A DNA stretch of 63,027 nucleotides, the filler included, from Choristocarpus tenellus KU-1152 (taxonomy: Eukaryota; Protista; Phaeophyceae): assembly GCA_964200185.2 (NCBI GenBank). It is 12 parts of 12 records of this genome, joined end to end, with 100 filler letters (N's around TTAATTAATTAA, not from the genome) between each part and the next. Parts side by side here need not be neighbours in the genome. Positions count along the whole stretch, not along the records: positions 40,006 to 42,839 come from CAXNAD020024339.1; positions 42,940 to 49,722 come from CAXNAD020007362.1; positions 49,823 to 52,522 come from CAXNAD020025532.1; positions 52,623 to 55,426 come from CAXNAD020024603.1; positions 55,527 to 63,027 come from CAXNAD020006060.1; 7 more parts are not named here. The stretch is one strand, 5' to 3'. Made by a program: the position numbers and the translations under genes. The notes under the pieces were generated by a model. The model worked only from the letters and a program-made list of their open reading frames with translations. It searched no databases and was not told the origin of the DNA. This document shows positions 6,801-63,027 of this stretch, piece by piece; the first letter of the stretch is position 1, and each line of letters opens with the position of its first letter.

Positions 6801-7207
6801 CCTGCGATTACGTTGCACTTGGCTTATGATTGTAGAGTTTACTTTGTGTGCCCTAGTAAGATCAAATAATAATTTTCATCATTTTATGGTGCTCACCTAG
6901 ATATATGGAAGTGAACAAGCACTTTTGTGTTGTTTGATGCTCTGGGCATATACAAATATATACATATATATATATGTACTACCCATTGTCTCTCCACTTA
7001 AATAGCATGATATATATTTGTTAAAGGCGTTGAAAGATCAGCAACCTTCGAGAGGGAATTGATGGAAAGGAACACTGTTGCTCACCTTGGACAGGGTGAC
7101 CTATCACATAACACCACGTGTTATCTTACCTTTTTCATGACGAAGCAATGTTCGGACAGACTTTATTGGAGTAAATGAATCTGAAATTTGCTGTGGCAAT
7201 GGGCAAT

Positions 7208-7230
7208 GGCCCAAAGTATCTGGCGGGGGG
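7208..7230. mobile_element. MITE terminal inverted repeat, truncated by contig end
   Basis: ggcccaaagtatctggcgggggg matches the TIR of the complete copies at 43736 and 49828. Confidence 0.75.
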
Positions 7231-10163: not shown

Positions 10164-10318
10164 GGCTCAAGGTATCTTGGGGGGGTAGTGACTTTCCATT
10201 TGGGGCCAATTTTTTTATGTCGCGATTTTTGTGTGATTTGGTTGCATACGTCTGATGGATAATATAAGCGTACTGTTCCTGGTTGTGACCAAAATGTCCA
10301 CCCCGGTGTAGTCCCCCC
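10164..10318. mobile_element. MITE copy, truncated at contig end
   Basis: TIR ggctcaaggtatcttggggggg plus internal atgtcgcgatttt...gatggataat...ggtgtag core shared with the other copies. Confidence 0.85.
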
Positions 10319-37444: not shown

Positions 37445-39740
37445 TGACTTGCTCCATAAGAAGAGAAAAATAGTCGTGTTTTGCATCAGCAAAGGCTTTC
37501 TCCTTGTGTACAGCTAGAAAGTTCGAGAGTGATCATTTCCCCTGCTTTCCACTTCGTGGTGGTCTTGTGCCAACTTGGGTCGAGTTGCTATGTCCTCTTC
37601 TCGTAAGATTTTCTCCAGAGCTATGCTTGCATTGCCACCGTAGCGATTGGAAGTTACTCTGTGGGTACTTTTCAGTTGGCCTGTGCTTTCATTCTTGTGT
37701 TGGGACTGCTGCTGTCTATCAGATTGCTGCTGAGTGAATCCTCACAGGTTTTGTGGCAACCCTCCGTTAGATTATATGTTGTAGAACGTTTGGTGGTGGC
37801 CCACAGTTGAGGGAACTTGGTTTGCTATTTGTCAGAAGAAAAAAAAAAGCGTGTTCAGGTATATAGATACACTAATGACTGTGATAAGGTCTCGCAACTG
37901 CAGCATTTAACACAGAACACATGTTCTTTTGGTATAGGGATCCTGCTGCAGTGAATGAGACTTGTAACAATCGCAGTTTCAACAGCGAGATTCATGTGTG
38001 GATGTGAGCACTAAACACAACCGTCAGGCTCCTTGCCTGAGCTGTCTGACGCCCCCTTTCCCAGGGCCTTCTGCCCTCGAAGCATGATGGAAGTATGTGG
38101 AGCGATGCAAAGATGATGTACCCACCGAATGAGGGCACTTATTTTTTTCCTATCAACGGAAACATAACTGAGCTGCACTTTTGATCACTTTTGTCCTGCC
38201 TAGTACAATGTGATACCTTTTATCTATTTTGTTTGCTACTGTGTGAAGAGTAGACGTGTGCATCTATATATACAATGTAGTTTTTCCTGAGGAGTCATGA
38301 CCCTGTGGTGCCCTGACGGTGCTCTCTCCTCGTCTTCTTCTTGCGGTCTGATGTAGTGGTAGTGTCCGATTTTGGATGAGTTGTATGATGTTTTGGACTG
38401 GATGGAAACGGAGAGATGTTCTAGAAGCCCTTGCTCCATGGTTAAGGATGAAGCATTGTGAAACAAGAGGGTGTGACTCTGTAGCTTTGTATCGCAGTGG
38501 GGCATGAGAAAACAGGTTTCTCACTGCCCTTCTGTCTTTCTGCACCATCTATTGTCTAGTTTGAAGATCAAATCTGTCTCAACATCTGGTGACTGTCTGG
38601 TGTGACTAGTCCTCTCATGTAAATGAGTTTGTTTGTCTGTCAAGTACTCTATCATGCACGCTTCCATGACCTAGTAACAAATGCGTAGATCCTGCTGTTG
38701 CTGGTGCGTTGAGCAAAAGCATGGCCGAACATGCATCCAACCTAACACCATCGTTAGGGAAGAGAGTGCAGTAGCTAGTGAAGCAGATTTGTCAGTGGTC
38801 TGTCAATTGTTACGACAAGCTGGGGATTCCCGTAGACTAGTTGGTGGATCGGTATGATGGTATATAAGTTATATCCCTAATGTACATGTATACCAGTGGT
38901 GTTGTGAGCTTACTGTCGTACTGTTATTGTTTTCTTTGCAGTCATACCGTGCTGCCGACTCCATGAACCACCTACTGCAACGTGTGTGCTTGTAGTCCTA
39001 ATGTCTATGATAGAGGGTTCAACACGGGGTATTTGAACTACTCTGGGCACTGCAATACTACGGTAGTGAGACGCCCCACCTTTGATTTAACAGGCGTAGT
39101 TGTCTTTCTTTCTGGGTTTTGTTTTTTCATCTTGATGCTGAGAAGAAACATAAAAAAGATTGTTTGAGATGGCATGTTACTTATTTAATGTAATCGTATG
39201 GACTGAATGTTGTTACCTTTTCCACCAATCAGATCAAGAGGTTATTTTTGTGATGTAAGACCTTTCTGTATTTTTCCTCATAGTGATCAGTTGCACACAG
39301 GAACTCACTTACAATAAGATTTACTTTTGTCTTGTTTTCAGCCGTGACCGCATCCCCATGCTCCAACCAAGCTCATACTCCGTAAAATAGTCATCGAGAG
39401 TTCTAGGGAGAGGGTTGTGCGAAGCACTCAAGAAGGTTTACCGCGTATTTACTATGTCATAAGTAAAAAATAATTGTGCTGATTGCTTGTTGAGAATTTT
39501 AGGATTCATCCTCCTGAGTGCCTTGGAAAAATGGAAGTGATATGAGCTTCCTACTTCATGATATTTTGTTTGAAGCAGTTGAACAGATGATCTAACCTAA
39601 TACTACTATTGTTATATACATGTACATTTACACCATGTACACAAGCAATAATCATGGATGGCAGTGCTTGATCTCTTGCCTCTCATTTCATACCACCACA
39701 ACATTGACAATATCAATGTATCATCATCATCATCCGTTCA

Positions 39741-39905
39741 GGCTCAAAGTATCTTGGGGTGTGTGGGGGGGTGGCGGCTGTCCAATCGGGGCCCTTTTTT
39801 TCATGTCGCGATTTTTGTCTGATTTGATTGTATTCATCAGATGGATAATGTAAGTGCACTTCTCCTGGTCAAGACCCGAATGGACACCCTGGTGTAGACC
39901 CCCCC
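39741..39905. mobile_element. MITE copy, truncated at contig end
   Basis: TIR ggctcaaagtatcttgggg plus the shared internal core. Confidence 0.85.
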
Positions 39906-40005: not shown

Positions 40006-40032
40006 CCCCCCCCCTCCCTGATACTTTGGGTC
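40006..40032. mobile_element. MITE end inserted into ParB-element copy 1
   Basis: ccccctccctgatactttgggtc|att. The homologous site in copy 2 (52721-52730, tgttattcag) is empty. Confidence 0.75.
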
Positions 40033-40480
40033 ATTCAGCGGCCTGGCCTAATAATAAAACAAACAAGAACGCTTTTTATTGTTCGTGTATATACAGCACA
40101 GACACAGCATGTGGTTGCCCACGAAGGAGAGGGTTTGGTTCACAAAATGACACATCGTGCGTTTATTATCTCAGGCAACACCACAACGGTCCAGGGAAGG
40201 AGTGGACCTTACCCGCGAGAGGGGGGGGGGAGGGGGCATGATACTCAGCGGCCTGGCCTACCTTGTGCTGAAAGAAAAAACTGTTCACACTTCGTCTGTA
40301 CACATACATACTACATGGTCCCCGCTAATCAAGCATTTGGTTGACAGGGTTGCTAAACGCGGGATACTATCTGAACTTAGGTTGAATAGGAGGACACAGA
40401 GAGATCTTCACAACAGCTGTAACCCAACAAAGAGAAGTAGTAGAACGCCACCATCCCACCAACGTTGACAACTCCCTCAC

Positions 40481-41301
40481 CTTTTTGTACATTTTACGGA
40501 TCTCTGCTAGTGACACTTCTATCTTCTTCGTCTGGCGCTTGATAGCTTCTTCGAACTCGTGCTGAAAATATACCTTATCGTACTGCGTGCGCTCAACCAC
40601 ACTCTCGGTCGCGTCATTGAATGCTATAAGCGTGGCGATGCAGTGGGCGAACGGGGCAAGGGGTAGGTGGGAAGCGGTTCCGGGACACACGCGGCAGGCA
40701 GTAGTGAGCAAAATGTCGCTGCTGACAGAAAGACCACGAGGGATAAAAACGATCAACAACGAAAAGATCAACAACAGGCTGACTGACAATGAATCAAACA
40801 AAGGAAACACAGCAACAACTTGGTAGATCAGAAGAGTCATCCGGCGATCATGGAACAACAACAACACTCCATCACTCACCGTTGGCAATTAGCCTCTCTT
40901 CTGTTTGGTTGAACTCCATGTAGACCCGCATCATGAAAGCGCGTTCGTGATCAAACTCTCTCTTCAACACCGTTATTCTATGGTGTATGTCCAGTGTTCG
41001 TCCTTGAATGGCAAGCGCAGTGTCGGCGGTGAGCTGGTCCCCGTTGCCTAAGCAGTCTCGTTGGATAATGATGGACAGAGCAAACTGCTCCAGCCAGCCT
41101 TTTTCACGGATAGACTTGCTGACGCGCGCAAGGACGCACCATCTCTGTGCATGTGATGTTGCCGAGTTTCATTTTGTACATGCCGAGGTAGTGCTGTTCG
41201 AGGAGCGAGGACATGCCCTTCAGATTGCTGTCCGACGCTCTCGATCCATGGGCAGCGCCATTGGCGTGCAGGGAGGTCGTTGTTGAGCGAATGTTGGACA
41301 T
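40481..41301 (-). pseudogene. ParB/Srx-domain gene, copy 1. Exons 41301-40880 and 40623-40481; 17-nt deletion frameshift near 41130 and DGNHR>DIHHR
   Basis: SKSIREKGWLEQFALSIIIQ...TLDIHHRITVLK...ERLIAN|AFNDATESVVERTQYDKVYF...SLAEIRKMYKK. Donor GTGAGT and acceptor TAG are phase-compatible. Further candidate exons lie downstream. Confidence 0.72.
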
Positions 41302-41417
41302 GGCGAAGATTGGGAATGTGTGACGGGGATAGATAAGAAAGAGCTGCTGGTGGTATGTACGGAAGGGAAGGAATGGAAATGAGGAGTGAGGGCTGGGAGG
41401 TGCTGCTTTATTTCATC

Positions 41418-42385
41418 TGGTCCGTCGGTGCCCAAAGAACTCAGATTTCTCTTTCCGTTGATAACTGTGTTCCAAAAAGTATGAATATCGAACAGTATAC
41501 GATTTCATATTTAAAACAGATAGAGAGTATCAGTTTTTTGTGACCTTTTCGTTTCGGAAAATTTCAAACGTATTAGATCAACGAAGTATGTGGTTTGTAT
41601 TTTTATTTATTGAAATTACGAATATAATCGAATTTTTAATTTCCTAAAAACCAGAATACACGTATTTTCCGGATCATGGATTTTAGGCTGGTCCGACGGA
41701 TCGCTTGAACCTCGAAGTTCTCTTTCCGTTGATAATTGTATTTTTTTAAATATGAATGTCGAACAGTATACGATTTCATATTTCAAACAATTAGAGAGTA
41801 TCATTTTTTGTAACCTTTTCGTTTCGGAAAATTTCAATCGTATTAGATCAACGAAGTATGTGGTTTGTATTTTTATTTATTGAAATTACGAATATAATCA
41901 AATTTTTAATTTCTAAAAACCAGAATACACGTATTTTCCGGATCATGGATTTCAGGCTGGTCCAACGGATCACTCGAAACTCAAACATCGTTCATACGCC
42001 CGTCTTCAAATTCAATTCTATCGTGCCCAAGACCGCCTGTTGTCTGAGACCAGAGTAGAAACTAGTTTTTATTTAATCACAGCGAAAATAAATGTGTTTT
42101 CCATAACACGGATTTAATTCTGATCCGACGGATCACTTGAAACTCAAACATCGCACGCCCGGCTTCGAATTCAATTCTATCGTGCCCAAGGCCGACTGTT
42201 GCCTGAAACCAGATTAGAATCTAGTTTTTATTTCATCACAGCGAGAATAAATGCGTTTTCCAGAACACGGATTTCATTTTAGTCCGACGGGTCTCTTCAA
42301 ACTCAAACATCGTACACCTGGCTTTGAATTCAATTCACTCCTAGACCTTCTCACTGCCCAAGACCACCTGTTGCCCGAAAACACC
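41418..42385. repeat. Tandem arrays: two ~270-bp AT-rich units, then ~2.5 units of ~160 bp
   Basis: acgaagtatgtgg at 41581 and 41851 (period 270). aaactcaaacatcg near 41978, 42140 and 42299 (period ~160). Confidence 0.92.
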
Positions 42386-42839
42386 ATGTCAGTTGCTTCC
42401 ACAGCAAGGGGGTGGCTTTGTCACCTGCGTCGCCCCCTGCGTTGCCCCCTCATCAGTCCGCCAACAATGATGCGCTGGAGCTTTCTACCAATGACGCTTC
42501 AGCGACCAGCGCCAAGCTTCGCCGAGAATGAGCTGAACCCATCCCGGTCAACGAACAGGGTGACTGCTGCAAGCGCTTAGCCTGTGTGAAGAAGTTCGCG
42601 ACAGATAGCGAGTCCTTCCTTGCCCGCATGTTGGTCAAAGAGCAGGACATCATCCGGGCGTGTGAGAACCGCCGCGATTCGAAGCGCTTCGTTGGTGACT
42701 GTGTACCTGTCATTAAGTTGGGACCTGGAGCCGGATCTATGCTCGCGGCCAGCATTCCCGTATGTGCACAGTTTTTCAAGGCATCGTTCGGAATATCAAA
42801 TCATGTCATCGATGCTTGCAAAGGTACACCTAACGCAAG
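42386..42839 (+). pseudogene. N-terminus of a putative Sola/DUF7869-like DNA transposase (1-nt deletion near 42418, in-frame TGA near 42528), cut by contig end
   Basis: ...GDCCKRLACVKKFATD...IPVCAQFFKASFGISNHVIDACK. The CC-x3-C-x3-F ... VC-x2-FF-x3-FGIS pattern resembles the Cys-rich N-terminus of Sola-type/DUF7869 transposases. The catalytic domain is not in the window. Confidence 0.5.
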
Positions 42840-42939
42840 NNNNNNNNNNNNNNNNNNNNNNNNNNNNNNNNNNNNNNNNNNNNTTAATTAATTAANNNNN
42901 NNNNNNNNNNNNNNNNNNNNNNNNNNNNNNNNNNNNNNN

Positions 42940-43014
42940 CACACGTTTCCTGCTCAGGGTCCAAATGGACACCCTGGCGTAGACCCCCCCCCCCCCACAC
43001 AAATACTTTGAGCC
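42940..43014. mobile_element. MITE copy, truncated at contig start
   Basis: ggacaccctggcgtagacccccc...aaatactttgagcc matches the family end. Confidence 0.8.
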
Positions 43015-43023
43015 TTACTGGAA

Positions 43024-43054
43024 TTTTTTGTCGATTTATTTAAAGGGTTAGGGT
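43024..43054 (+). repeat. Interstitial telomere-like (TTAGGG)n, ~5 units. Shorter or degenerate tracts at ~705-722, 11641-11660, 52275-52288 and 59740-59850
   Basis: agggttagggttagggttagggttagggtta read directly. Confidence 0.85.
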
Positions 43055-43735
43055 TAGGGTTAGGGTTAGGGTTACCATATATAGATATGGCTATAGGTAC
43101 CTGCTTCTTTTGTATCAGGCATCTTGGTAGGTACTGATAGACCCGATAGGAAGAAGTGGAAAGGTGGCACAACTCAACACAAAAAGCAGGAAAAACGTTA
43201 CTAAATAATCACACTTCTTTGCCCTATACGAGCATAATGCTAGTCGCAAAGTAGGAACTACCTCGACTCACCAAAAAATTACGATCAACGCTCAGGAGAT
43301 CCAACACAAGCATAGTCTCACACCAGGGGTGAAAGAATTGTAAGGAAAATAGGAGTAAACATCGATGTATTCAACAGACCTAAGTGGATCTTTTGATCCT
43401 ATCTGCTGATTCGATTTTTTTGGAAGATGCCACCCTCTTTTTCGAACAATTATTAACAGCATATTAATTTGTCTTCATATAGAAGTACAATAGGAGATTG
43501 GGGTCTGGTAGTATAAGTAGTTTTCACAAGACAAGTACCTGCACAAACTTTATACTATAGTCGGACATTCCCTCCCTTTCCTTCTCTATTGTAAGTATCA
43601 GGTACCCTTTGGTCCATTTTTTTTCCTGAAGAGGGCAAAGTGTGTCGATTGAGTGATAGTGGACATTCCTTCACCGCACACAATGTTTACCCCAGTCATT
43701 ATACACCGATTGACTCAACAAGATGTTTTCAACAT

Positions 43736-43923
43736 AACCCAAAGTATCTTGGGGGGGGGGGGGGGGGGGGGGGTCTACACCAGCGTGTCCATTTGGGTCA
43801 TAACCAGGAAAAGTGTACTTTCATTATCCATCTGACGCATGCAACCAGATCGCCCAAAAATCGCGACATGAAAAAATTGTCTCCAAATGGATAGTCGCCA
43901 TCCCCCTCCAGATACTTTGAGCC
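43736..43923. mobile_element. Complete 188-bp MITE with TIRs and CAT target-site duplication
   Basis: cat|aacccaaagtatcttggggg...ccccctccagatactttgagcc|cat. Confidence 0.9.
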
Positions 43924-46744
43924 CATACGTTCCTACTTCTTCAATGTTGGCATCAACTTAGATATTCTTGCATGGGTAGTGTGTACTACGTATAGTATGA
44001 TGGTTTAACAGGACATTACATACAATACTTCCAAGTATGTGGATGTAATTTAATCTGCTGGCATCAACCTTTCTTTGGCGTCATTGAAGTACCCTCCAAC
44101 TTTTTTATAACTGTGTTCACTGCAGGGTGGCACCTGTTAAAAAAATCATGCCACAATCGTTGATGTACAAACGTCATACCGTGTCTTCAAAGCTCACCAT
44201 GAAGAGCCAACCCTAATACTTGTCACCGTGCACTATATCATTCCCCACACCCGTTGGTCCTCTTGATTGCAGATCACTTTGCATTTAAAACGTTTTTCAC
44301 TCTAGACCGTCCGACATTTAATGTTTAACCCTAGTTCCGTAATTTGTGAGCTGTCAAAACCAGTCAAGGAAGCTGTTGTTGCTCCCTAACTGTACAGCAG
44401 GAGGTATATCCTCTCTACTATGCCAAACTTACTGGACAATCATTCTCACTCTCCATGGATCAGGGTTTCATGTGAATGAAATTTGCTTCGTATTGAAAGC
44501 CCTAAGGTACAATTGCATAAAGAGGCTTTGCATAATTGTGGTGTTGAACCATCAGAGCTGTAGTATCCCAGTAAGGATCTCTGTGACCGCGTTCTGTTAC
44601 ATATCTTCCTAGCACTCTGGAGGGTCGTTTTGCACGATACATGGAAAAATGTTCGTGGCCTCTTCTACAGCCATAGTCTCCTGATGGGGCTTAGCTCTAT
44701 CTTGGGCATGGGAATGGGGGTGTCAGCAGAAGATTTCGAAAGCACCTTACATTCAAAAATGGTATACTATGGCTCTTCTTGAGTACATATCAATTGTTTT
44801 CCATTCTTTCAAATGAGGCGCAGTCTGACCAAATACAGAGGGACATACTTGCCTTCTTTCAACCACTTCACTTTGAGATTGTTTTGAAGAAGATTGCCGA
44901 AGAATCTGTTCAGATTGTGGGGTTTGAGGTGTGGTTGCATGCAAGCAGCTTACTTAGTAGTGAGCTTCAAGAATCACGAGCCAGCAAATAAATTGAACAC
45001 ACTTGCGCGCGCGCATGCATTTATGCACATGCAAAAATTGCGACACTCGATTCTCAGTCATTGCTCAAAATCCTTTTTGTGGTGTTCCAGAGTTGGTATG
45101 GTGAGTGTTTGCCTGGCTCGTGCTCAAGTGTAGCAACCCCGTTAGAGGTTTATTCCTCATTGATGAAGGATGGCGAAGGAGAACAAGGGGTGTACGGTGT
45201 GAAAATACCGGATGAGGAAAGGCAGGAAGGATCGACAACAGTGTCTGTATCCCACACTACGTTCCCTGAAAATCAAAAGTGAAGTTGAATTATAACATAC
45301 ACATCTTGACTGTACATGCCACAGAGATTAAGTTTTTGGAGTCTGCAGTGGGTTCTCTACATGTTTGTAATCTCATTTTGGCTCATAGAGCTTTATCTGT
45401 GTTGTATTTCTCCGAAAATAATGTGTGCATGATTTACCCCTCCCCACAGAACTTCTCTTGTGTTGGGGATGACCTCTATCATCACCAGAATTCAATAAGG
45501 CATCCTTTGAAAGAATTATGTGGATATCATATAATGTAACCAGACAAATGTTGCCTTGAAGAAATGTTTGTTGTAGTGACTTGGGTATGAGTCAATATGT
45601 GATTTGAGGACAGGAGAGAGGAGGATGATGTGAGATGTTGGAAGGCTTTCTTGGGAATCTCTGGTGGTTTTGTGGTGGTTTTGTGGTGGGTCTTGTCAGG
45701 GAACTGCCATGTTATTTATGGATGGAGTTCATTTAACCATTTACTACTATTGAAGCTCTTTAAATGTATTGGACGGACAAAAATAGATAGGTAGGTACCT
45801 ATCCCTATTCCTAACCCTAACTCTATAAGTTGGGGCATTTCCCTTGTTGTTCCAATCAATAAGAAAAGGTTGGGTGAAAGGTTTGATGAACTTCGTCAAT
45901 GGAGAACGTAAGGGATTTCGTCGTTTGGTGGATCCTTGTGAGTCATAGTTATATTATTGGAGTTACTCACCATCACGCGGCTATTCAACGATAACGTACA
46001 GAGGGAAACGTGTTAGTTGGTCGGGGTCTTGGTCAAGGTCTGAACGCTTTTTTTTTGTTGGGTTGAGTTTCATGGCAGGAAGGACATGAGGAGGTTGGAG
46101 GGGGGGAGACGTGATTAATCTTACGGGATGAGTGAGTACTTCAACCAGAGATAATGATCCATATCTAATTCAAACTCATAACACAGAACTCTTCAATTTC
46201 AATCTGTTTTTGTCGTAACCCATTAACCCACCGACTCAGTATGGATCAAGCACAGTTGAGCGATTGTAACAATTAGGTCGAAGATATATTTTGTATTTCT
46301 ATCAGGGTATTGTTGCGTATTTTTGTTTATAGAAACCTTCACTGTTGATTGGGTGATGATTCCAAAACATATTTTTCTTCTAAATCTTGAATAACGCCCA
46401 CTACAATTTCTGCCCCTCACGTTAAGGGTGACACCTTTTTGTGAGCTCCAAGGGTTTGATTTGTGTTTCCGCAAGTTTCAGCCTGCTCCTGAAAGCAGTC
46501 CATACTACCTTGATTCATATACCTAAGGTTTCAGAGAAGTGTGTAGTGTCACTGTTGCCAATCTTGGCATCTATCGTGTCTGTCGGTTTGTCTGAAAATC
46601 TGACGCCACCCTCCAACTTAAAATTATCCACAACTTCACCTGCCTCAAGGAGAGCGTTCATCGGTATACACAACATCATCTGCGCAAGTACAACGCTATC
46701 GGGGTTGTTCGACATATAAATTTATTGGGGAGGATAGGGGGAAC

Positions 46745-49261
46745 ATGGCGGACCAGGGTGGGACATGGCGTGAGGCGCATGGAGGGCCTGATGAACAGGG
46801 ACATTCCCTAGTGAATCGACGCATTCGTATCTGGTGGGATGGTGACTCCGCTTTCTACAATGCGGACGTCGTCGCGTAAGTGTGTGTTTAACTTTACTCG
46901 ATGTGCGCTCACGCTAAATCTTGTTTTGGGGTCTCCTCTTTACGTTCTAGTAGAATGATACCGAAGCGGGAAATGAGATTAATTGAGGGAGGAATTGCAC
47001 GCCAACATGTTGCAATTATTGCTATCCCCTGACACCCTCGAGCGCTATTTCTTGCACTATTCCTTTCTCAACCCTCATCCACATTGGCTTGCTCATGTTG
47101 AACTCTATTCATTTACTATTCGAATCTCCCTCCACGTGGTTCGTCTCTTACAATATGGTCCCATTCGACTTAGCTATGTCTCTGAGACGGGTAAGCACAA
47201 GGTGATCTACGTCGAGGACACGGACATATACGAGGAAGATCTTAGCCCCGGGAAACAGCGATGGGAGTTACTGGATGGGTCCGCGTCCCAAGAGCGCCGG
47301 GACCTACCTGGCCGTGCAGCGAAACCCACTAGCTTCAACGCGGCCCATTTTACGAGCCCCAGCAGCTCTGGGAAGAAGGCCACATATGCAGACATGGCCC
47401 TGGAAGTAAGTCTCAAGAACACGCGACTCGAATCCAAACATAGTTTGACTGATCTTTTGTGGATATCCTCCTACCAAGGACAATTTGACCTATTATCGCA
47501 ATTGTGTTTGTTCTTTTTCAAGAGTATTTTATACTAGGTAGTTGTCTTTAAATTGTGATGCCAACCTTTAGAGCCATACCTTGTTCGGAGCTTCTTGGGT
47601 TTTTTTGTAGTCTCCAATCCATCCTTTGGCACTTGTTGAATTGATTCAATTTGCTTAACATGTTAGCACACCCTCTGAAATTGAGTGTACAACATGGGGT
47701 GGGTACACTAAGGTTTCTGTTGTAAGGGAAAGAAGCAGTGCAAGCACTGCCTAGAGAGGTTGATGGGCCAAAGATTTTGCTCTGCCTTCGCCACCTTCCC
47801 AATGGAGTATATATAGATTGTTTCACTCTCAATGTCTATCTTCAGGCAGATTTTCCTTGTTACTTGTCCCTGACCCCATGATGCAGGGTTGCCAAATATT
47901 TTATTGGTTGGTAGACCTTACTCTTCTCATACACTTCTATCCTAATAGCCTCATCCCTGAACCCCCAAATTTTCTTCACCTCTCAACCCCAACCCCTTCA
48001 TGCCCCCAAGACATGCTGAAATTGCACACCTGACTCCTGCCCTATGGCCTGACCATTAATTGTTGGGGCTTGTCCTTGCTGATGCTTCTCTTGTGTATGG
48101 CCACCGCTTGTCAGGCCATTGCAGACATGAAGGACAAGAATGGTTCATCTCTCCCATCTATCCGCAAGTGGATCCAGAACAATTTTACTGAGACACGAGA
48201 GAAGCAGAAGGCCAGCTTCAACAGCCTTAGCATCAAGGTTTGCATCCTCTAGCCAAATGACCTGATCTTTTGTCCCAGCTCACTCCGACCTTGACCCGGC
48301 CTTTTATATTAGTCTGTATTCTTGTGTAGATTGTTGATGGTGTGATGCTCTACCTCCATTTGACCTCAGGATAAGAAACTAGTATTTTCTGCACATGTTG
48401 TGATAAAATCTATTAGCTCAAGCCCTGCTGTGAGAGTTACATGCTTCTTCTGGGATTGGTAATTCAAACTCCTAGGGTGCTCTGACCCCTCGTGTAGTTT
48501 GCTTTTGCACTTCCATTTCCTTCCATACCCTTGCGTTATTCTCTGAATCTTTGTCATCTCTGAATCCTTGCTGCTCCCTTGCTCCTTCACCACAGGCGTT
48601 GGCAAAGTTGGTGTCAGATGGTGTCCTTGAAAAGGTGAAGCACTCATTCCGATTGTCCCAGGACTACTTGCGGGAGGAGAAACGAAGGGAGAGGGAAGAG
48701 GCTAAGGCTAAGGGGGGCATAGCTTTGCTCAGACTTCAGGTAAAACTCTAGTGATGTCCCAACAAGCACATGATGGAAAGGGGAAGATGAGGAGTGGAGG
48801 GGTAGGGGTTAGGCATGGGAAGATTAAGGTGGATAGATGAGCGAAAGGTTGTGTGTGCTAGAGGAATTTTAATGGAGAGGTTGCTCCAAGATGAATATCA
48901 GAATGTTACTATCTCGCAAGTTGTTTTAGGTCGTTGACATGATAGTTGTGTTGGGGGTGTAGAGGGGTACCACCATATCAGCAAAATATTTTCTTCCGTC
49001 CAATTAATCAACGGTAGAGTCCTTCCAACTCAATCCTTGCTGTGATACCTCCCCCCCATTCCCCTTCAATCTTTGTATCTGGTTGTAGGTAACGGATGCG
49101 AAAGGGAAACATGGACCTGGACTTGGGATGGGATCTGGGGGGCAACGATCCAACATTCGTGGGCGAGGCCGGGGGGGAGGGGAAACATGGGAGGCCAACA
49201 AGCAGATGCGGCAGAACTATGAAAGGCGGATACAGAAGCGAAACGAATTCCTGTCAGAAAG
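46745..49261 (+). CDS. Chromatin protein with an N-terminal Tudor-like domain and a linker-histone H1/H5 globular (H15) domain, 5' part. Exons 46745-46875, 47174-47405, 48115-48237, 48596-48739, 49089-49261
   Basis: LVNRRIRIWWDGDSAFYNADVVAYVSETGKHKVIYVEDTDIYEEDL...RWELL resembles PDS5/MSH6-type Tudor. TYADMALEAIADMKDKNGSSLPSIRKWIQNNF...KALAKLVSDGVLEKVKHSFRLS is an H15 domain. All junctions are GT-AG and phase-compatible. Confidence 0.88.
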
Positions 49262-49827
49262 GTAAGCAAGAGTTGGTCTATGTGGTAATGGTGGAGCTAT
49301 ACACGCTCAGTGGGTCAGGGTATTTGTTGGCACTGCAAATGCAACTTCTTTAGGGGCAGGAAAAGTTTGCGAGATAAGGGTGGGCAAGGCAGCGTTGCAC
49401 TAAGGTTTGCTGCAGCACTGATGGGGCTTGTCTCAGGAACATGCTAACACAAGTATGGCAAAAGCCACCTTCTTTGGCTATGTGTATCATGCACCATTTT
49501 TCTCCTGTACCATTAGAGACACCTGCAGAGTTTTGTGTGCATTGGTGATGCTTTTGAACTGCTTCCCACTCCCCTCCTTTGCACCTCTTCCATTGTCCCC
49601 TTCTCTTGTATGCATCTACTCTACCCTCCTTTTCATGGATCTACTTGAAACACACTAGTTTCACCCCTCAGCTCCTTCCCCCCCCCCCCCCAAAACCACT
49701 CCCTACCGACCCTCCCCCCATCNNNNNNNNNNNNNNNNNNNNNNNNNNNNNNNNNNNNNNNNNNNNTTAATTAATTAANNNNNNNNNNNNNNNNNNNNNN
49801 NNNNNNNNNNNNNNNNNNNNNNCATGT

Positions 49828-50012
49828 GACTCAAAGCATCTAGGGGGGGGGGGGAGGGGGGATCAACACCAGAGTGCCCATTCGGGCCTTGGCCAGGAGA
49901 AGTGAGGATACATTATCCATCTGACGCATGCAACCAAATCACCCAAAAATCGTGACATGGAAAAATGGGCCCCAAATAGACAGCCACCGTCCCCCCCTAG
50001 ATACTTTGAGCC
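49828..50012. mobile_element. Complete 185-bp MITE with TIRs and TGT target-site duplication
   Basis: tgt|gactcaaagcatctagggggg...ccccccctagatactttgagcc|tgt. Confidence 0.9.
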
Positions 50013-52287
50013 TGTTCCTATCAAGCTCCAGAGTGTGACTCAAGCATGATAAAACAAAAAATCTTGAGTATATGAGAGTGTGCCCTAAGCTCCAATGAGC
50101 AAAAATACCGAGTCAGGGAAAGGTCACGGAAAATCGAGGACCGAGTATTTCTAAAACTTATTACTTGATGTGGCACTGTATAGATCTGGTGTCGATTTTA
50201 CTACTGACTATCGATCATCTATGCCCCCTACCATGTTGATTTTTCTTGAGGGATACTCCACTTCCTCGCACCTCATAATCTTCCAGTCCCACCTCGCACC
50301 CCTTCTATGCAAGATATATACTCCACTTCAGAGGCAAGATCCAAATACCCTATCTATCGCCCCATTCACAGCGATTTCATGTTGGCCGACGACAAACAGA
50401 TAGAGCCAAAAGAAAGTTATAAAACCGACCTGTCCATATGACAGTGTGGTAGTGCCGTAAATGGCTGCGACTGGAAAACGAACAAGATATGCCCTCTCTT
50501 TTCTATCTGTATCGGGTATGGGAGGGAGTCTTTACTAGCTGTGGGAACAACTAACGTATACAAATCAGAAGTAGGATGCTGCGTCTGGAAGAAGTAATCC
50601 TTATGGAGAGCTGAAAATCATGGCTGCGGTCAATATACGGTCGATTGTAGACTTCCACCATACCGTGCCACTTGTAATCGATGTATGATGTAGTACTAGC
50701 CTTGGTCATGGGAATTTCTCCTGCCAATAGAGGCCTACTTCAAATCTCAACATCGCTTAGGACTTTACGGCGAGGTTGTACGACTGGTGATCGGTGTTGG
50801 TACACGGTAGGTATATATTACATTCAAGACTTGTACGTAAACCACTAAGTCTCACTCCCATTGCATCATCATCAGAGCTTGTGCTTACCCACGACCTTCC
50901 ATCTGGTGCCCCCCATAGTACCATAACCCGATCACCTCCAATCCAATGGTATTTACAATAGTGGCCCTATTTTCAGTGGAAAAGGAAAACGTGGGGAAGA
51001 GGGGTACTACAAGGTGAATATTGGACATGGACCAATCCAGGGGGCGTCTATGATCAGGACACAGTGCGATGCTGCTTTACAGACAGAGCGACCACTTCCC
51101 CCTGTTTGATTTGACAGTTCTAGTCACGGTGCTTAGGAAGGAGACCCCTGTAAATTTGGAACTGTTTTGGGTCTCCATCAAGGTTTGGAATGAAGGTGAT
51201 TGAACATAGTATCGAACCGATCATTCAAGCCTAAGGGTGATAAGACCAGTCGCTCGAATTTGTCATAAAAACAAACAGATATGACATTTAAGTAAACTGA
51301 AAGGGAAGTAGTTGTAGGACAAACCCTGGTCCACAACACACAAAGTGATATATATTAATACGAAACTTACCCAACCCTGTCGTTTTACTCGTCTTCCGTT
51401 TCCAATATATGTGATCACCTCCTGTGTCGTCCAGCTGTGCAACCACACCATGCACGAGGGGTAGCATTTCCGTCCTGGACACCAAGGAATCAGCCTCCAC
51501 TCACAAACACACCCAAACACGTTTCTACTTCTATTTTTTAAAGTTTGAGGCCCTGAGACGTATCTTGTGGAAAGACATCGAACTTGAGGTTGAAGGGTTT
51601 CCGGGTAGATGCTTGTTCCCGTAAAATTCTTATTGTCTATTTATTCCAGAGTTGAATATACACTATTTAGAATATAGAGGTAGATCGATGTAGCACATAC
51701 ATTGGTCAAAAAGTGAAGCGAGAGGGAAGGCGTTTTGTCTCTTTATTGACGTTGGCTGTTGTGAGTCAGCGTTTTTGGTGACTGTTTCTGGAATGAATTT
51801 AGGGTTCAAACCCAGACTTTTCTTCTTAGAAAAGTGGTTCCATTATTTAATTCCATTTGGCAACCACAACATATTGTACACAGCTATTATACCTATAATA
51901 ATACTTGTTGAAAATGGTGGGGATATTTGGACGTACAATAACAAGGGACATAGGAGAAATACTTCAAAGAATGTTAAAATCATTCCTGTCGTTGTGATAG
52001 TGTCCAGATCGAGGGTAGAAAGTATACGTTGGTGTAGTTCGGTGTAGTTTGTGACCCCATTATGATGGTTAGGTGTGAGCAAGAACTTGGTCACTGTGCC
52101 CGCCTTGGGTAATGGAGGACCTGGTTTTTCTTCCTTATGTAATGAACGATTGTTGGCCTCCATTAACCAAGCATCCGGTTCTTTCTCTTGGTACAGTACC
52201 TACCCCGATTTTGTTCACCCATGGGTATGCCCGAAAAAGCGGCACACAATCTACATGGTATAATATCGATTTGCAGGGTTAGGGTTA

Positions 52288-52391
52288 GCTAGAATCAATC
52301 GTCGAAGCAACTAATTAATCGTGGTCAGCTGGGAAATCAATCATCGAAGCGACTGAATAATCGTGGCGAGCTGGGAAATCAATCGTAAGCT
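52288..52391 (+). repeat. ~41-bp tandem repeat, ~2.5 units
   Basis: agctgggaaatcaatcrtcgaagcractraataatcgtgg repeated, immediately after a TTAGGG tract. Confidence 0.8.
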
Positions 52392-53293
52392 TCATGGATA
52401 GGATGGAAACGATTACGAGCTCTTTTTTTTAACTCCCGCCTCGCCATAAGGAAGGAGAATACTGTATGCGCCTTTTACCTCAGAGTCTCTTCTGTCTTTC
52501 TAAAACATATTGTCGCTCTCCTNNNNNNNNNNNNNNNNNNNNNNNNNNNNNNNNNNNNNNNNNNNNTTAATTAATTAANNNNNNNNNNNNNNNNNNNNNN
52601 NNNNNNNNNNNNNNNNNNNNNNTTCGCGATGGGCAGAAAAGAAAAATATGATGCACCCAGCCAGCCAGGATGAGGCATTGTTATTACCACACCAACGGGG
52701 TATGTATGAGTGGGGAGGGGTGTTATTCAGCGGCCTGGCCTAATAATAAAACAAACAAGAACGCTTTTTATTGTTCGTGTGTAAGCAACACAGACACAGC
52801 ATGTGGTTGCCCACGAAGGAGAGGGTTTGGTTCACAAAATGACGCATCGTGTGTTTATTAATTCAGGCAACACCGCAACGGTTCGGGTAAGGAGTGAACC
52901 TTACCCGGGGGAGGGGGAGGGGGACGGGGTATGATACTCAGTGGCCTGGCCTATCTAGTGCTGAAAGAAGAAACTGTTCACTTTGTCTGTGATTTTGCAC
53001 ACACACATACTACATGATCACCCGAAAATCAAGCATTTGATTGACAGGGTTGCTAAACGCGGGATAACTATCTCAACTTAGGTTGAATAGGAGGACACAG
53101 AGAGATCCTCACAACAGCTGTAACCGAACAAGAGGAGGAGTAGAGTGCCACCATCCCACCAACGNNNNNNNNNNGAAAGGAGGATTGATGGGGCAGGATG
53201 GACGGGTCTGACACGTCAGGAGAAGGCGACACTTTGTTTTATCTCGGTAGGAGTAGAGTGCCACCATCCCACCAACGTTGACAACTCCCTCAC

Positions 53294-54193
53294 CATTGTG
53301 TACATTTTGCGGATCTCTGCTAGTGACACTTCTTTCTTCTTCGTCTGGTACTTGATAGCTTCTTGGAGCTCGTGCCGAAAATATACCTTATCGTACAGCG
53401 TGCGCTCAACCACACTCTCGGTCGCGTCATTGAATGCTATAAGCACGGCGGTGGAGTGGGCAAATAGGGCAAGGGGTAGGTGGGAAGCGATCACGGGACA
53501 CACGCGGCAGGCAGTAGTGAGCAACATGTTGCTGCTGACAGAAAGACCACAAGGGATAAAAAAGATCAACAACGAACAGATCAACAACGGGCTGACTGAC
53601 GATGAACCAAACAAAGGAAACACGGCAACAACTTGGTAGATCAGAAGAGTCATCAGGTGATCATGGAACAACGACAACACTCAACTTACTTAGTTGCTTA
53701 GTTGATCAGAAGAGTCAGGCGATGATGGAACAGCGACAACACTCCATCACCCACCATTGGCAATTAGCCTCTCTTCTGCTTGGTTGAACTCCATGGAGAC
53801 CCGCATCATGAAAGTGCGTTCGTGATCACTCTCTCTCTTCAACACCGTTATTCTATGGTTTCCGTCCAGTGTTTGTCCTTGAATGGCAAGCGCAGTGTCG
53901 GCGGTGAGCTGGTCCCCGTTGCCTAAGCAGTCTCGTTGGATGACGATGGATGGAGCAAACTACTCGAGCCAGCCTTTTTCACGGATAGACTTGCTGACGC
54001 GCGCAAGGCTATGCTCGCTCAGGGGACGCACCATCTCCGTGCATGTGATGTTGCGGAGTTTCATCTTGTACATGCCGAGGTAGTGCTGTTCGAGGAGCGA
54101 GGACATTGCCTTGGCATTGCTGTCCGACGCTCTCGATCTGTGGGCAGCGCCATTGGCGAGCAGGGGGGTCATTGTTGAGCGAATGTTGGACAT
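53294..54193 (-). pseudogene. ParB/Srx-domain gene, copy 2. Exons 54193-53755 and 53436-53294; one nonsense change (CAG>TAG at 53960-53962)
   Basis: VRPLSEHSLARVSKSIREKGWLE*FAPSIVIQRD...QTLDGNHRITVLKRE...ERLIAN|AFNDATESVVERTLYDKVYF. It shows the ParB-type R-x-L...SI-x-x-x-G-x-L-x-x-x-P, DGNHR and LxxN motifs. Confidence 0.78.
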
Positions 54194-54309
54194 GGCGAAG
54201 ATTGGGAAGGTGTGAAGGGGATAGATAAGAAAGAGCTGGTGGTGGTATGTGCGGAAGGGAAGGAATGGAAATGAGGAGTGAGGGCTGGGAGGTGCTGTTT
54301 TATTTCATC

Positions 54310-55384
54310 TGGTCGGTCGGTGCCCAAAGAACTCAGATTTCTCTTTCCATTGATAATTGTGTTCCAAAAAATATGAATATCGAACAGTATACAATTTCAT
54401 ATTTCAAACTGATAGAGAGTATCAGTTTTTTGTGACCTTTTCGTTTCGGAATATTTCAAACGTATTAGATCAACGAAGTATGCGGTTTGTATTTTTATTT
54501 GTTGATATTAAGAATAGAATATTATTTTTATATCATAAAAATCAGAATACACGTATTTTCAAGAACATGGATTTCAAGCTGGTTGGTCGGTCCCCAAAGA
54601 ACTCAGATTTCTCTTTCCGTTGATAATTGTGTTCCAAAAAATATGAATATCGAACAGTATACGATTTCATATTTAAAACAGATAGAGAGTATCAGTTTTT
54701 TGTGACCTTTTAGTTTCGGAACATTTGAAACGTATAAGATCAATTATGTGGTTTGTATTTTTATTTATTGATATTACGAATGTAATCGAATTCTTAATTT
54801 CTAAAAACCATAATGTACGTATTTTCCGGATCATGGATTTCAGGGTTATCCGACGGATCGCCCAAAATTCAAAGTTCGCTTTCCGTCAACATTTGTATTT
54901 TTTTTAAAGACAAATGTCGAACAATATAAGATTTTGTATTTAAAACAATTAGACGGTATCAGTTTTTTGTGACCTTTTAGTTTCGGAACTTTTGAAACGT
55001 ACAAGATCAATTAAGTATGTGCTTTGTACTTTTATTTATTGAAATTACGAATATAATCGAATTTTTAATTTCTAGGAACCATAATGCACGTATTTCCGGA
55101 TCATGGATTTCAGGGTGGTCGGACGAATCGCCTGAAACTCAAACATCGTTCATACGCCCGGCTTCGAATTCATTTCTATCGTGCCCAAGACCGACTGTTG
55201 CCTGAAACCAGATTAGAATCTATTTTTTATTTCATCACAGCGAGAATAAACGCGTTTTCCAGAACACGTATTTAATTCTGGTCCAATGGATCTCTTCAAA
55301 CTCAAACATCGTACGCCCGGCTTCAAATTCAATTCACTCCTAGACCTTCTCACTGCCCAAGACCGCCTGTTGCCCGAAAACACC
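54310..55384. repeat. Tandem arrays: three ~270-bp units, then ~1.5 units of ~160 bp
   Basis: ctctttccrttgataattg at 54341 and 54611 (period 270), a third unit from ~54846, and aaactcaaacatcg near 55135 and 55298. Confidence 0.92.
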
Positions 55385-55778
55385 ATGGCAGTTGCTCCCA
55401 CAGCAAGGGGGTGGCTATTTTCGCCTNNNNNNNNNNNNNNNNNNNNNNNNNNNNNNNNNNNNNNNNNNNNTTAATTAATTAANNNNNNNNNNNNNNNNNN
55501 NNNNNNNNNNNNNNNNNNNNNNNNNNGGGGGCCAGAGTAAGGACTAGCACTATTTTGCTCGCGAACATGAGTGTAGGGAAGATTACCTTCATAATTCAGA
55601 AACAAGAAACAACCGCTATTGTTCAGAGTACTACTGCAGGAGTTGAAGTTGGGTTTCAATGAACCGGCAAAATGCATACTATTGATGCACAAATCGCCCA
55701 ACGGTGAGGAAAATGACAAGAAAAAGGGATAATTTTATTTGGGCTCCTTTCTCCTATTTTCATCTGATGCTCGATTAC

Positions 55779-57757: not shown

Positions 57758-60700
57758 ATGGATGGTGCTGCGAATGGGGATAAGGGTATGGCCGACCAGG
57801 AAAATTCTTCGCAGCAACATCAGCAATCCACGGAGCAGACACCTCGGCCACGGACAGAAGCAATTCCGAGGGGGCCAGAACATGCTAAGGCTTCTGTGAC
57901 TACCCTCTTGCCTGCTACAACCCCCCAAGTCCCTTTGTCCACATTGTTTAGCGCTGATAGGATTAAACGAACCCTTCCGAACCACGGGAGAAAGGGGGAA
58001 CGGTATCCCATTGAAGGGATGGGGCCAGCCCGGGAGCCGAGACGTGCATCAAGCTCACCCAAGGGACGCACAGTTGGCCCTGAGGCATGGGCTAGCCAGG
58101 GCTTGGCAGCAACTGCTGCAAGAAAGAGTAGGGCACACTCAACCAAGGCTGCTGGGAATGGGGACTTGAGGTGGGCCAAAGGGGTTGCTGGGGGAACGGG
58201 AAAGCAGGGGGAGACATTGGGGACAGCTGTTGAACAAGGGGAGGCAGGGGGTGGTGGGGCAGAAGGTGGTACAGGGGAAGGGGAAGGAGCTGACCCTGGA
58301 GTGTTGCCGCCTTCACTAGTGAAGTTAGACCCGAGAAAGGAAAAAGAGGCTGAGCTTCTCAAGACCATTACGGTGCGTTTTCCCCGTGTTTTTTCTCTAT
58401 TTGTTGAGTGTATTGGTCACAAGTGGGCTGTGTCCTAGTGGGTTGAGGGTGATGGAAGTACTGGTGTCTATCTATCTGGATGGGGCCTTTTTTGTCAGTT
58501 TCACAATTTATGTTGTAGGCTGCATACAAGGGAGTCTGCTACATCAACTTCTAGAGCTCGATGTAAATGACCAGTCTTTATATTGTCATGTTTTGGCTTT
58601 GTAAGTAGTGGTTTTTCTTACAGCAGTTTGTCCGTGATGGGTGAAATGTTGCAGTAGATTTTGTTATTATTATTATCATTATTGTTATTGTTGTCCTTAC
58701 TCCACTGGATATCCTTTCATTTATTCTGTGCTACAAACAACTATATTTTGTGGATGTGGTATGTCCTGGGTTGCAGCCTTAACCTCACATATATATATAT
58801 ATGTTTACATATTTTAATATCTGTTAAGTATTGAAAATGCGGCATGGATGCGTGCTGTTTGTAAAGTGCATAATGAAAAAAAGAAGTATGTGATGGCACT
58901 CTTTTTGTCACACAAAATTAATAAATATATCTAAACAACATTGGCACGTGCGTCATGGGGTGCAGATCACTCACATACTCGATATAGAGATCATCTTCTT
59001 GATGGTGAGAAACCTTTCTGTGGGATGTGGTTTGGCTGAGTGTGTATCCCAGTTAGGATTGCACCCTAACCAATGGAGAGGATATCTCAATGCTGTGTTT
59101 GTCATGGGTGTGGGTGACAAAATCTAGACCCCCCCTTTTTTTCTGTGAATGTTGAAGAACGGTATTGAGATGGAGTGTGTGTCATGTAGAGAGTTGGCAG
59201 TATGTAGTTGTTAGGGGGGTGTTTTTTGCACAATACTGCAGGTAGGCCTCTCAGACTTTGGGTGTCTGTTTCTTACAGTGAATATTTCTTGCCATAGGAT
59301 GTAGTATGTAGTATGTAGGTAGTATGCAGTGTCTAGTATGTAGTATGTAGTATATAGTATGTAGGTAGATAATATGTAGCTTATTCTTGCAATAGGGGTG
59401 TGTAGTATCTAGTATCTAGTGTGTAGTATATAGTTTGTAGTATGTAGTATATAGTATGCGGTATGCAGTTTTTTGTTGCAATAGGGGTATGTAGTTTGTA
59501 GTATCTAGTATGTAGTATGTGTTTATTCTTATGATAAGCGTATGTAGTATGTAGTGTGTAGGTAGTATTTAGTATGTAGTTTATTCTTATGATAGGGGTA
59601 TGTAGTATATATTATGTAGCGTGTAGTGCAGCAGTACTTGTTTGTGTAAGGTGTTAATACACTGAGGCTGTGTTAAAATAGGTGTAGGTCATTATTTCAA
59701 GTTTGTAAAGGACAAATCAGTGTGGTGAGGTTTGTATATAGGGTTAGAGTTGAGAGTTATGGATGTGGGTTGGGGCTTGGGTTAAGTGTTAGGGATGGGG
59801 TCAGGGTTTAAGATTAGGATTAGGGGTAGGGCTGAGAGTTAAGGGTTAGTGAGAGATTTCTATTGTGTTACGTAGACGTATGGAAGCACAAATAAACTAC
59901 GAAAGTTGCGGTAGGCTATGGAGAAATCACGCATACTTGTATGATACTTTTAAGCGCCTCTCAAGGTTTGGAGATCCTACCCTGTTCTTTTTTGTTTCTT
60001 TTTTTGGGGGGGGCTGTTGAAGACGTTTTGCTTCTTTCCAGTCTGTTGAAGCCAAGGGTGCGCGCTTTAAACAATGTGTGTGTTTGTGTGTGTGCAACTA
60101 ATGTGTGTGTGTGTGTTTGTGTGTGTACAACTAATGTGAGTGTGTGTGTTTGTGTGTGTACAACTAATGTGTGTGTGTGTGTTTGTGTGTGTACAACTAA
60201 TGTGTGTGTGTGCGGTAAAAATAAATAAGCCTGCTGTTCATTTGTCTGAAAGTATTTATATACATGTATATATATATATTAATATCTATTAATATATTGT
60301 AAGTACGACGAACGCCCTGTACCGTGCGCTTCCCGTAATTCAGGTACGAAGAATGACCTCGTGTATGCAACACCTTAGGAGATATTTAGGTTTTCGATCA
60401 AGGTTCAGATGTAGGGTTAGGGAAGAGGCAAGAGAAGGGGTTGTGTATTAAAGTTGAGTCAAAGTATCTTAGAGGGTTGAGCCGCGTCCATTTTGGGGGC
60501 CAAAACTCATTGTTGTGATTTTGGTGTAATTTTTTTGGCGATCATGTTTGGTAGTAAGTGTCGACGTCCTTGTTCCAGACACACCTGTTCATAACGTGCA
60601 CATTTTACCTACTCCAAAACATTTCAGAGCAGGAAAAGTGTCATTAAAAAAAAAAACGTGGGAAGCCAAGCCCCAAATGGATGAACAAGGCAAAACTCGT

Positions 60701-62957: not shown

Positions 62958-63027
62958 GTTGGAGGTTTACATATTGTGTGTGTGTGTGTGTGTGTGTGTG
63001 TTGGAAGATTTTGTTTGGGGGGAGGGG

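Follow-up and report, generated by a model that had tools for sequence, protein, structure and literature searches.

Two contigs in a 63-kb stretch of DNA from the brown alga Choristocarpus tenellus KU-1152 carry related copies of a repeat, in which a spliced gene on the minus strand is separated by a tandem array from a cysteine-rich (Cys-rich) open reading frame (ORF) on the plus strand. By sequence comparison the minus-strand gene is a member of a brown-algal protein family, and structural models of its homologs predict the fold of ParB and sulfiredoxin (Srx). It is highly probable that this is a ParB-fold accessory gene carried on a mobile repeat. Both copies are decayed pieces from the interior of a multi-copy element, which is likely a giant Sola-type DNA transposon of brown algae. 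The stretch (the window, 63,027 nucleotides) consists of 12 unrelated contigs with N-linkers between them, and the sequence analysed is that of these contigs.

Organization of the two copies

Copy 1 is located on the contig at 40006–42839 and copy 2 on the contig at 52623–55426. The contigs align over ~2.4 kb (self-BLAST and alignment), with the same order of parts: spliced gene (−), array of 270- and 160-bp tandem units, and Cys-rich ORF (+). The identity between the copies is 91–96% in every part, coding or not (exon 1, 93.1%; intron 1, 91.0%; exon 2, 93.0%; intron 2, 92.4%; first 270-bp unit, 91.1%). These results bear out the common layout on two independent contigs that was reported in a preliminary description of this DNA. 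The same description took 40033 and 52623 as ends of the element, which is wrong. Copy 1 is cut where intron 2 contains a small element resembling a miniature inverted-repeat transposable element (MITE), and copy 2 is cut by the end of its contig. At the position in copy 2 that corresponds to the left cut of copy 1, many contigs of public runs extend further left, so this is not the end of the large element.

The features of the two copies are listed below (X3 is a public run, described in the next section).

Copy 1
40006–40032, no strand: end of the MITE-like element inside intron 2, with the terminal motif of the repeats at 43740–43920 and 49832–50009
40033–40480, minus strand: partial intron 2, with 92% identity to copy 2 and a GT donor after 40481; X3 contigs run from exon 2 into exon 3
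40481–40623, minus strand: exon 2, 143 nt, encoding the Asn that follows the ParB core, then the initial helices of a putative helix-turn-helix (HTH) region
40624–40879, minus strand: intron 1, 256 nt, GT-AG, phase 1, from the splice sites and the skip in an X3 contig
40880–41301, minus strand: exon 1, predicted ParB/Srx-fold domain, with a 17-nt deletion and altered DGNHR; E 6e-28 with the family profile
41417–42385, no strand: tandem array of two 270-bp and ~2.5 159-bp units, between the divergent start codons
42386–42839, plus strand: Cys-rich ORF, disabled, with a frameshift near 42420 and a stop at 42529–42531, open from 42532 to the contig end

Copy 2
52623–53293, minus strand: nearly complete intron 2, interrupted by a gap of 10 N at 53165–53174; acceptor and exon 3 directly beyond 52623
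53294–53436, minus strand: exon 2, 143 nt, from the alignment with copy 1 and the splice sites
53437–53754, minus strand: intron 1, 318 nt, with a ~60-nt internal duplication, from the alignment with copy 1 and the splice sites
53755–54193, minus strand: exon 1, with 91 homolog clusters; the predicted ParB/Srx-fold domain keeps DGNHR and is interrupted by a premature TAG (53962–53960)
54309–55384, no strand: tandem array of three 270-bp and ~1.5 160-bp units
55385–55426, plus strand: first 14 codons of the plus-strand ORF, up to the contig end

Sequence of the stretch is present in three public runs from a single study, with word shares of 0.20, 0.16 and 0.09. At 80% likeness, 3943, 3139 and 527 contigs from the three runs align with copy 1, mostly 90–99% alike. 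These counts are not a copy number, yet they point to many divergent copies, and the earlier claim of a multi-copy element stands in this form. That the two contigs represent two alleles at a single host locus, or stem from contaminating bacteria, has next to no probability. The presence of only two copies in the window is all that favors it, whereas the copies differ by 4–9% in every part, their arrays differ in the number of units, and their disabling mutations are independent. It is also contradicted by the thousands of variant contigs on copy 1 and by the splicing of the introns.

Exons, introns and splicing

The ATG of the minus-strand gene is at 41301 in copy 1 and 54193 in copy 2. Both copies are disabled by mutation, in exon 1 of both and also in the plus-strand ORF of copy 1. 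Exon 1 of copy 1 has a frameshifting deletion of 17 nt and a changed DGNHR motif, and that of copy 2 keeps DGNHR and has the premature TAG. Intron 1 (40879–40624 and 53754–53437, respectively) is a phase 1 intron with GT-AG ends, and a second GT donor directly follows exon 2 in both copies.

A contig of run X3, with a depth of 189.7, jumps precisely over 40624–40879, with GT-AG ends (CT..AC as read on the plus strand). No joint for intron 1 is listed in runs X1 or X2. The X3 contig joins exon 1 to exon 2 exactly where the preliminary description had placed the intron. For copy 2, two X3 contigs pass from the end of exon 2 into sequence reading VGVTPP (hand translation). A further X3 contig has the same exon 3 start just past the left end of the copy 2 contig, behind a pyrimidine-rich acceptor, and the loose ends of X3 contigs at 52626 and 53300 also give this start (hand translation). 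It agrees with the continuation in spliced homologs (alignment A5).

The minus-strand gene has at least three exons and goes on off the contig. Because the second intron and exon 3 take it beyond the contig edge, the gene and the element run past both contigs. The earlier view of a gene with spliceosomal introns is upheld, as both introns are removed in X3 contigs. The merged open protein that accompanied this view is incomplete: exon 2 is followed by another intron, and the third exon is located off the copy 2 contig.

The kind of run X3 is unrecorded, and its contigs stem from the family, not necessarily from copies 1 and 2. The source of the splice joints is likely mRNA, with a processed DNA copy as the alternative. 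Between-run depth ratios were discarded, as X2 has the same exon bias as X3 and contig depth cannot rank the parts. In intron 2 of copy 2, a 29-bp sequence flanking the 10-N scaffold gap is duplicated (region 53136–53277), and an X3 contig skips from 53107 to 53249. This points to an insertion or a local mis-join.

A brown-algal protein family

A search with exon 1 of copy 2, among 1.84 billion representatives, finds 91 homolog clusters (at 50% identity) with E ≤ 0.001. Eight of the 30 clusters looked up carry names, all of them brown algae (Choristocarpus 3, Sphacelaria 2, Pylaiella 1, Ascophyllum 1, Undaria 1), and the closest homolog is from Choristocarpus (82% over 110 aa). The assignment of the gene to a brown-algal family is based on these named clusters. 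Most of the 72 homologs that were aligned are only 20–40% identical to the first row of the alignment.

The two exons are joined as predicted in five spliced homolog models (alignment A5), and exon 2 of copy 1 shares 36 of 50 residues (72%) with the spliced Choristocarpus protein P0009. The other homolog matches are mostly unspliced gene calls. In the 72-row alignment, column 153 is Glu in 44 rows and Lys in 16. The intron position is likely common to the family, because Glu or Lys in this column corresponds to read-through into the donor at the same phase 1 intron.

The family is missed by Pfam, which gives no ParB match for the pieces in the window, and only sub-threshold matches for the 72 homologs (GmrSD_N 4, DUF1015 3, DUF3723 2, ddrB-ParB 1), together with DGQHR in 6 of the 72. 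The sub-threshold DUF3723 matches (E 0.04–0.06) involve residues 93–166 of P0111 as well as the 2 of 72 homologs. The PHROG family phrog_1033, 'ParB-like partition protein', is matched by 20 of the 72 homologs, with a best E of 1.4e-6. Sequence searches of the Protein Data Bank found no ParB, and Rfam gave no match. No locus of relatives of the minus-strand gene was found in IMG/VR viral contigs, metagenome contigs or plasmids.

The predicted ParB/Srx fold

The fold was modelled on two homologs, P0015 (43% identical to exon 1 of copy 2) and P0096 (454 aa, partial). The P0015 model has a mean pLDDT of 82.9, and its top Foldseek matches are Noc, ParB-CDP and PadC (E 1.8e-4 to 8.8e-4). With VIA-align, the top eight rows for this model are ParB/Srx-type chains with Z scores of 7.3–9.8, including PadC (Z 9.8, rmsd 3.4, 122 residues aligned), Srx (Z 9.3) and KorB (Z 9.1), and the next row has a Z score of 5.3. 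The P0096 model matches ParB-CDP with a Z score of 11.0 (rmsd 2.3, 93 residues aligned). The protein family is thus predicted by the models to have the ParB/Srx fold. The nucleotide-binding fold of this type had been proposed from the motifs SIxxxGxLxP, (D)GxHR and LxxN, all of which are present in the gene, and the homolog models (Foldseek E ~1e-4, Z 9.8–11.0) and the PHROG matches agree with it.

In the P0096 model, the ParB domain is followed by helices at residues 168–187, 199–208 and 216–229 (pLDDT 64–77). Several HTH domains of the TetR type show a weak alignment with residues 166–230 (Z 3.5–4.3). The model is suggestive of an HTH after the ParB domain, the recognition helix of which would fall in exon 3. 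Of the earlier expectation of a ParB/Srx fold plus HTH, the fold stands (Z 9–11 on homologs) and the HTH is weak, with Z scores up to 4.3. Beyond this region, the P0096 model is helical, mostly at low confidence, and shows no enzyme domain.

The structural neighbors in BFVD are phage ParB-like proteins and proteins of Cafeteria roenbergensis virus (E 9.8e-5) and Orpheovirus (E 7.7e-4). They would fit a function in true partition or maintenance of a form outside the chromosome, for example an excised circle, or of a viral form, for example an endogenous segment of a giant virus. We consider this function very improbable. No relative of either ORF is found in IMG/VR contigs, and none in plasmids; the introns are canonical, spliceosomal introns; and neither ParA nor a ParA-binding motif is seen in the fragments. 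This motif, (L/F/I)G(K/R)G(L/F/I) as defined in PMC12704722, was looked for by eye in the exon 1 translations of both copies.

The putative nucleotide-binding pocket

The best-conserved columns of the family are an Arg, the segment S-I-x3-G-W-x5-P, DGNHR, and an Asn in exon 2. The pocket residues are conserved in most of the 72 homologs (R60 in 64, S73 in 63, G78 in 70, D114 in 70, G115 in 72, H117 in 71 and R118 in 67), and N154 is invariant in all six rows of alignment A5. The Box I (Arg, S-x4-G) and Box II (GxxR) motifs are found in copy 2 and are altered in copy 1.

In Myxococcus xanthus ParB, R54, R95 and N127 bind the phosphates, S68 and G73 bind the base, and Q52 and E93 are hydrolytic (PMC13229309). 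By spacing, R60, S73, G78, R118 and N154 of the homologs match R54, S68, G73, R95 and N127, respectively. The position equivalent to Q52 (58) is Leu, Met, Ser, Tyr or Phe, and that equivalent to E93 (116) is Asn in 64, Ala in 6, Tyr in 1 and Lys in 1 of the 72 homologs. The protein may therefore bind a nucleotide, CTP or ATP, without the canonical CTPase chemistry. The nucleotide specificity of ParB-fold proteins is reported not to be predictable (PMC12704722).

The tandem array

The array begins ~115 bp upstream of the minus-strand ATG in both copies, with the 270-bp units followed by the ~160-bp units. The two kinds of unit have a ~105-bp core in common. There are 2.0 units of 270 bp and 2.5 of 159 bp in copy 1, and 3.1 units of 270 bp and a 159–163-bp repeat in copy 2. 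The last, partial unit runs into the ATG of the plus-strand ORF, at 42386 in copy 1 and 55385 in copy 2. A 13-bp near-palindrome has four matches in the window, all of them in the arrays, compared to 0.86 expected, with the tandem copies not being independent of each other.

The plus-strand ORF

In copy 1, the plus-strand ORF is broken by a frameshift of 1 nt near 42420 and by a stop (42529–42531), after which it is open to the contig end, leaving the contig after ~150 codons. It is not a single open ORF over 42386–42839, as was described earlier. The open part of 102 aa (P0002) has the pattern CC-x3-C ... VC-x2-FF-x3-GIS. This pattern may be that of Sola transposase N-termini; no search confirmed it. 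The ORF is probably a transposase, and likely of the Sola type. The Sola/DUF7869 identity given in the preliminary description is not confirmed, as all family and homolog searches were blank. The Sola features used here are in part from a table of Ectocarpus Sola1/2 elements (PMC12477816), and the accessible part of PMC5751038 gives no Sola N-terminal motif. The 19 other ORFs in the window have one sub-threshold Pfam match only.

Comparison with known systems

Sola1-1_Ec32 of Ectocarpus is a 21.5-kb element with a gene for a 1104-aa protein, ParB-like with an N4C/N6A methyltransferase, opposite the transposase (Dinatale et al. 2025, PMC12477816). Self-binding and modification of the element by this protein were proposed there. 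The element studied here is similar in its brown-algal host, in having a ParB-like gene on the strand opposite a (presumed) transposase, and in being multi-copy and larger than the fragments. In a comparison of the two elements by description, no methyltransferase is found in the present one, nor in homologs of up to 454 aa. The available description of Sola1-1_Ec32 mentions no tandem array between the genes, whereas the present element has one. The termini of Sola1-1_Ec32 are AACCG-CGGTT, with a 4-bp target-site duplication (PMC12477816). The present element cannot yet be filed as Sola, nor its gene as the Sola1-1 gene itself.

In the red alga Bostrychia, PAG3 of Plavaka (EnSpm) transposons is a ParB-like protein with a putative 2OG oxygenase, encoded beside tandem arrays, and self-binding has likewise been proposed for it (10.1101/2025.02.11.637652). 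The N-terminal ParB-like domain, the adjoining arrays on a repeated element and the idea of self-binding are shared with the present gene. However, PAG3 is part of a three-gene Plavaka cassette with the putative oxygenase, and the host kingdom is different. No 2OG oxygenase domain is seen in the longest homologs. Moreover, the available description gives the PAG3 arrays as inverted repeats, whereas palindromes in the present arrays are not clearly enriched.

Bacterial ParB, Noc, KorB and PadC share with the family the fold (Z 9–11), counterparts of the base- and phosphate-binding residues, and a helical region, possibly HTH, after the domain. The family differs from them in having DGNHR in place of GERR, apparently no counterparts of the hydrolytic Gln and Glu, no ParA motif, and introns. 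Eukaryotic Srx has the same fold (Z 9.3) and a GxHR motif. The catalytic Cys of sulfiredoxin lies in a GCHR motif, and the equivalent residue here is Asn in 64 of the 72 homologs and Cys in none. Other differences to Srx are the extra C-terminal helical domains and the multi-copy, mobile-like nature of the gene. The minus-strand gene is a member of the ParB/Srx superfamily, and neither a canonical ParABS ParB nor a sulfiredoxin.

Only the studies of Sola1-1_Ec32 (PMC12477816) and PAG3 (10.1101/2025.02.11.637652) were found in the literature on ParB-like transposon genes in algae. A ParB-type HTH is also reported fused to chlorophyte Dam methylases (PMC4738411).

Proposed mechanism and its alternatives

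In the proposed mechanism, the spliced accessory gene would produce a protein with a predicted ParB-fold nucleotide-binding domain and a predicted HTH. This protein would load onto the tandem array of its own element and regulate the divergent gene, the putative transposase. Like KorB or VirB, it would bind DNA under the control of a nucleotide, and its role would be in transcriptional control or against silencing by the host, not in DNA segregation. It would be supplied in trans by intact copies at other places in the genome. For the full mechanism, self-loading on the array with control of the divergent transposase, we see the chances as even. A broader version is unlikely to hold as a whole. 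It supposes a large, Pfam-invisible, intron-conserved and enzyme-less family of brown-algal ParB-HTH proteins on giant transposons, acting as nucleotide-gated clamps on their own arrays. They would be a eukaryotic counterpart of KorB/VirB that controls the transposase or shields it from silencing by H3K79me2 or small RNAs.

Several observations weigh against the proposed mechanism of self-loading and transposase control. The evidence for the fold comes from the homologs P0015 and P0096 and not from the protein in the window itself. Counterparts of the hydrolytic Q52 and E93 appear to be absent from the 72 homologs (by motif spacing, not superposition), and 17 of 28 ParB-fold proteins tested bound no nucleoside triphosphate (PMC12704722). 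The HTH match of P0096 (Z ≤ 4.3) is below the level where the Z score is informative. Palindromes are above shuffles in only one of eight array units (1 of 200 shuffles, with overlapping matches counted twice), and no palindrome recurs across the introns and spacers. They are not clearly enriched in the arrays, and a parS-like role of the repeats is unproven. No terminal repeat, target-site duplication or DDE domain is found within the two contigs, both ends of the element being outside them. For the plus-strand ORF, the family databases Pfam, PHROGs and NCBIfam give no match, nor do viral contigs or two homolog searches, and Atlas gives only unnamed, arthropod-dominated clusters at 0.94–0.96, with a recognition of 2154, below the 2300 benchmark. 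Finally, the exons of the two copies differ by 10 synonymous and 28 non-synonymous changes (pN/pS 0.78, p 0.30), with no sign of selection on these two copies. This near-neutral divergence is what decaying copies would give. Overall, the ParB/Srx fold, the introns and the many copies of the earlier interpretation stand; its Sola identity is unconfirmed and its HTH weak, and parS-like palindromes are not clearly enriched.

The blank searches for the plus-strand ORF, the disabling of both copies and their nearly neutral divergence would also be expected if the element were a repeat of the non-autonomous or cargo-carrying type. The ParB-fold gene would then be a passenger that does not act on the element, and the plus-strand ORF would not be a transposase. 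Giant non-autonomous elements that carry unrelated genes are known in Ectocarpus (PMC12477816). Such a passenger is improbable, as the pocket residues are strongly conserved over the 72 homologs, most of them only 20–40% identical to the first row, and ParB-fold genes recur on unrelated algal transposons.

In another explanation, the ParB/HTH part is the front end of a DNA-modifying enzyme, with later exons encoding a methyltransferase that would mark the element's own DNA. This overlaps the proposed mechanism, the difference being what the loaded protein does. The gene goes on off the contig, and the host group is that of Sola1-1_Ec32, as is the opposite-strand layout if the plus-strand ORF is a transposase. 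In addition, a phage DNA-methyltransferase family, phrog_498, is weakly matched by 6 of the 72 homologs (best E 1.3e-4), and the match of P0096 covers the N-terminal part of the profile. On the other hand, the three longest homologs (454 aa, partial; 308 and 301 aa) are only helical after the ParB domain, with no methyltransferase match. A profile search of proteins of 528–2000 aa found none, which is weak evidence. We regard an enzyme of this type as possible, though somewhat doubtful.

Other repeats in the window

The small element at the cut in copy 1 belongs to an abundant MITE-like family of ~190 bp with inverted ends (CAAAGTATC and then a G-run). Whole copies are located at 43735–43925 and 49827–50014, with apparent 3-bp target-site duplications (CAT and TGT), and partial copies at 7207–7230, 10163–10318, 39740–39905, 40006–40032 and 42940–43015. 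From the length of the duplication, the family would be Harbinger- or CACTA-like. Several contigs break at its G/C runs, and longer or diverged elements at 60455–60728 and 31822–31910 bear its terminal motif. There are 5.2 telomere-like TTAGGG repeats inside a contig at 43044–43074, adjoining a MITE end. Complex satellites are found at 61700–62575 and 59295–59627, with periods of 41–43 bp and 7/58 bp. The translation of an exon-like stretch at 62850–62970 presumably resembles the N-terminus of trehalose-6-phosphate synthase and has no Pfam match.

Significance

The novelty implied in the preliminary description was overstated, since the same kind of gene and the idea of self-binding have been published (PMC12477816; 10.1101/2025.02.11.637652), and the copies described here are dead fragments. 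What the present analysis adds is evidence for the breadth of the family, which has no fewer than 91 clusters (50% identity) and includes named proteins from five genera of brown algae, with an intron position that is likely shared and a conserved pocket. Nucleotide switches of the ParB type are known from prokaryotes as DNA clamps, and the commonest eukaryotic member of the fold is sulfiredoxin (PMC12704722). The spliced forms in a public run, together with a defined candidate target array beside the gene, offer a test system. Ectocarpus has negligible 5mC and no H3K9me or H3K27me3 (PMC12477816), and for this reason a transposon protein that binds its own element, if confirmed, would bear on the contest between transposon and host in these algae.

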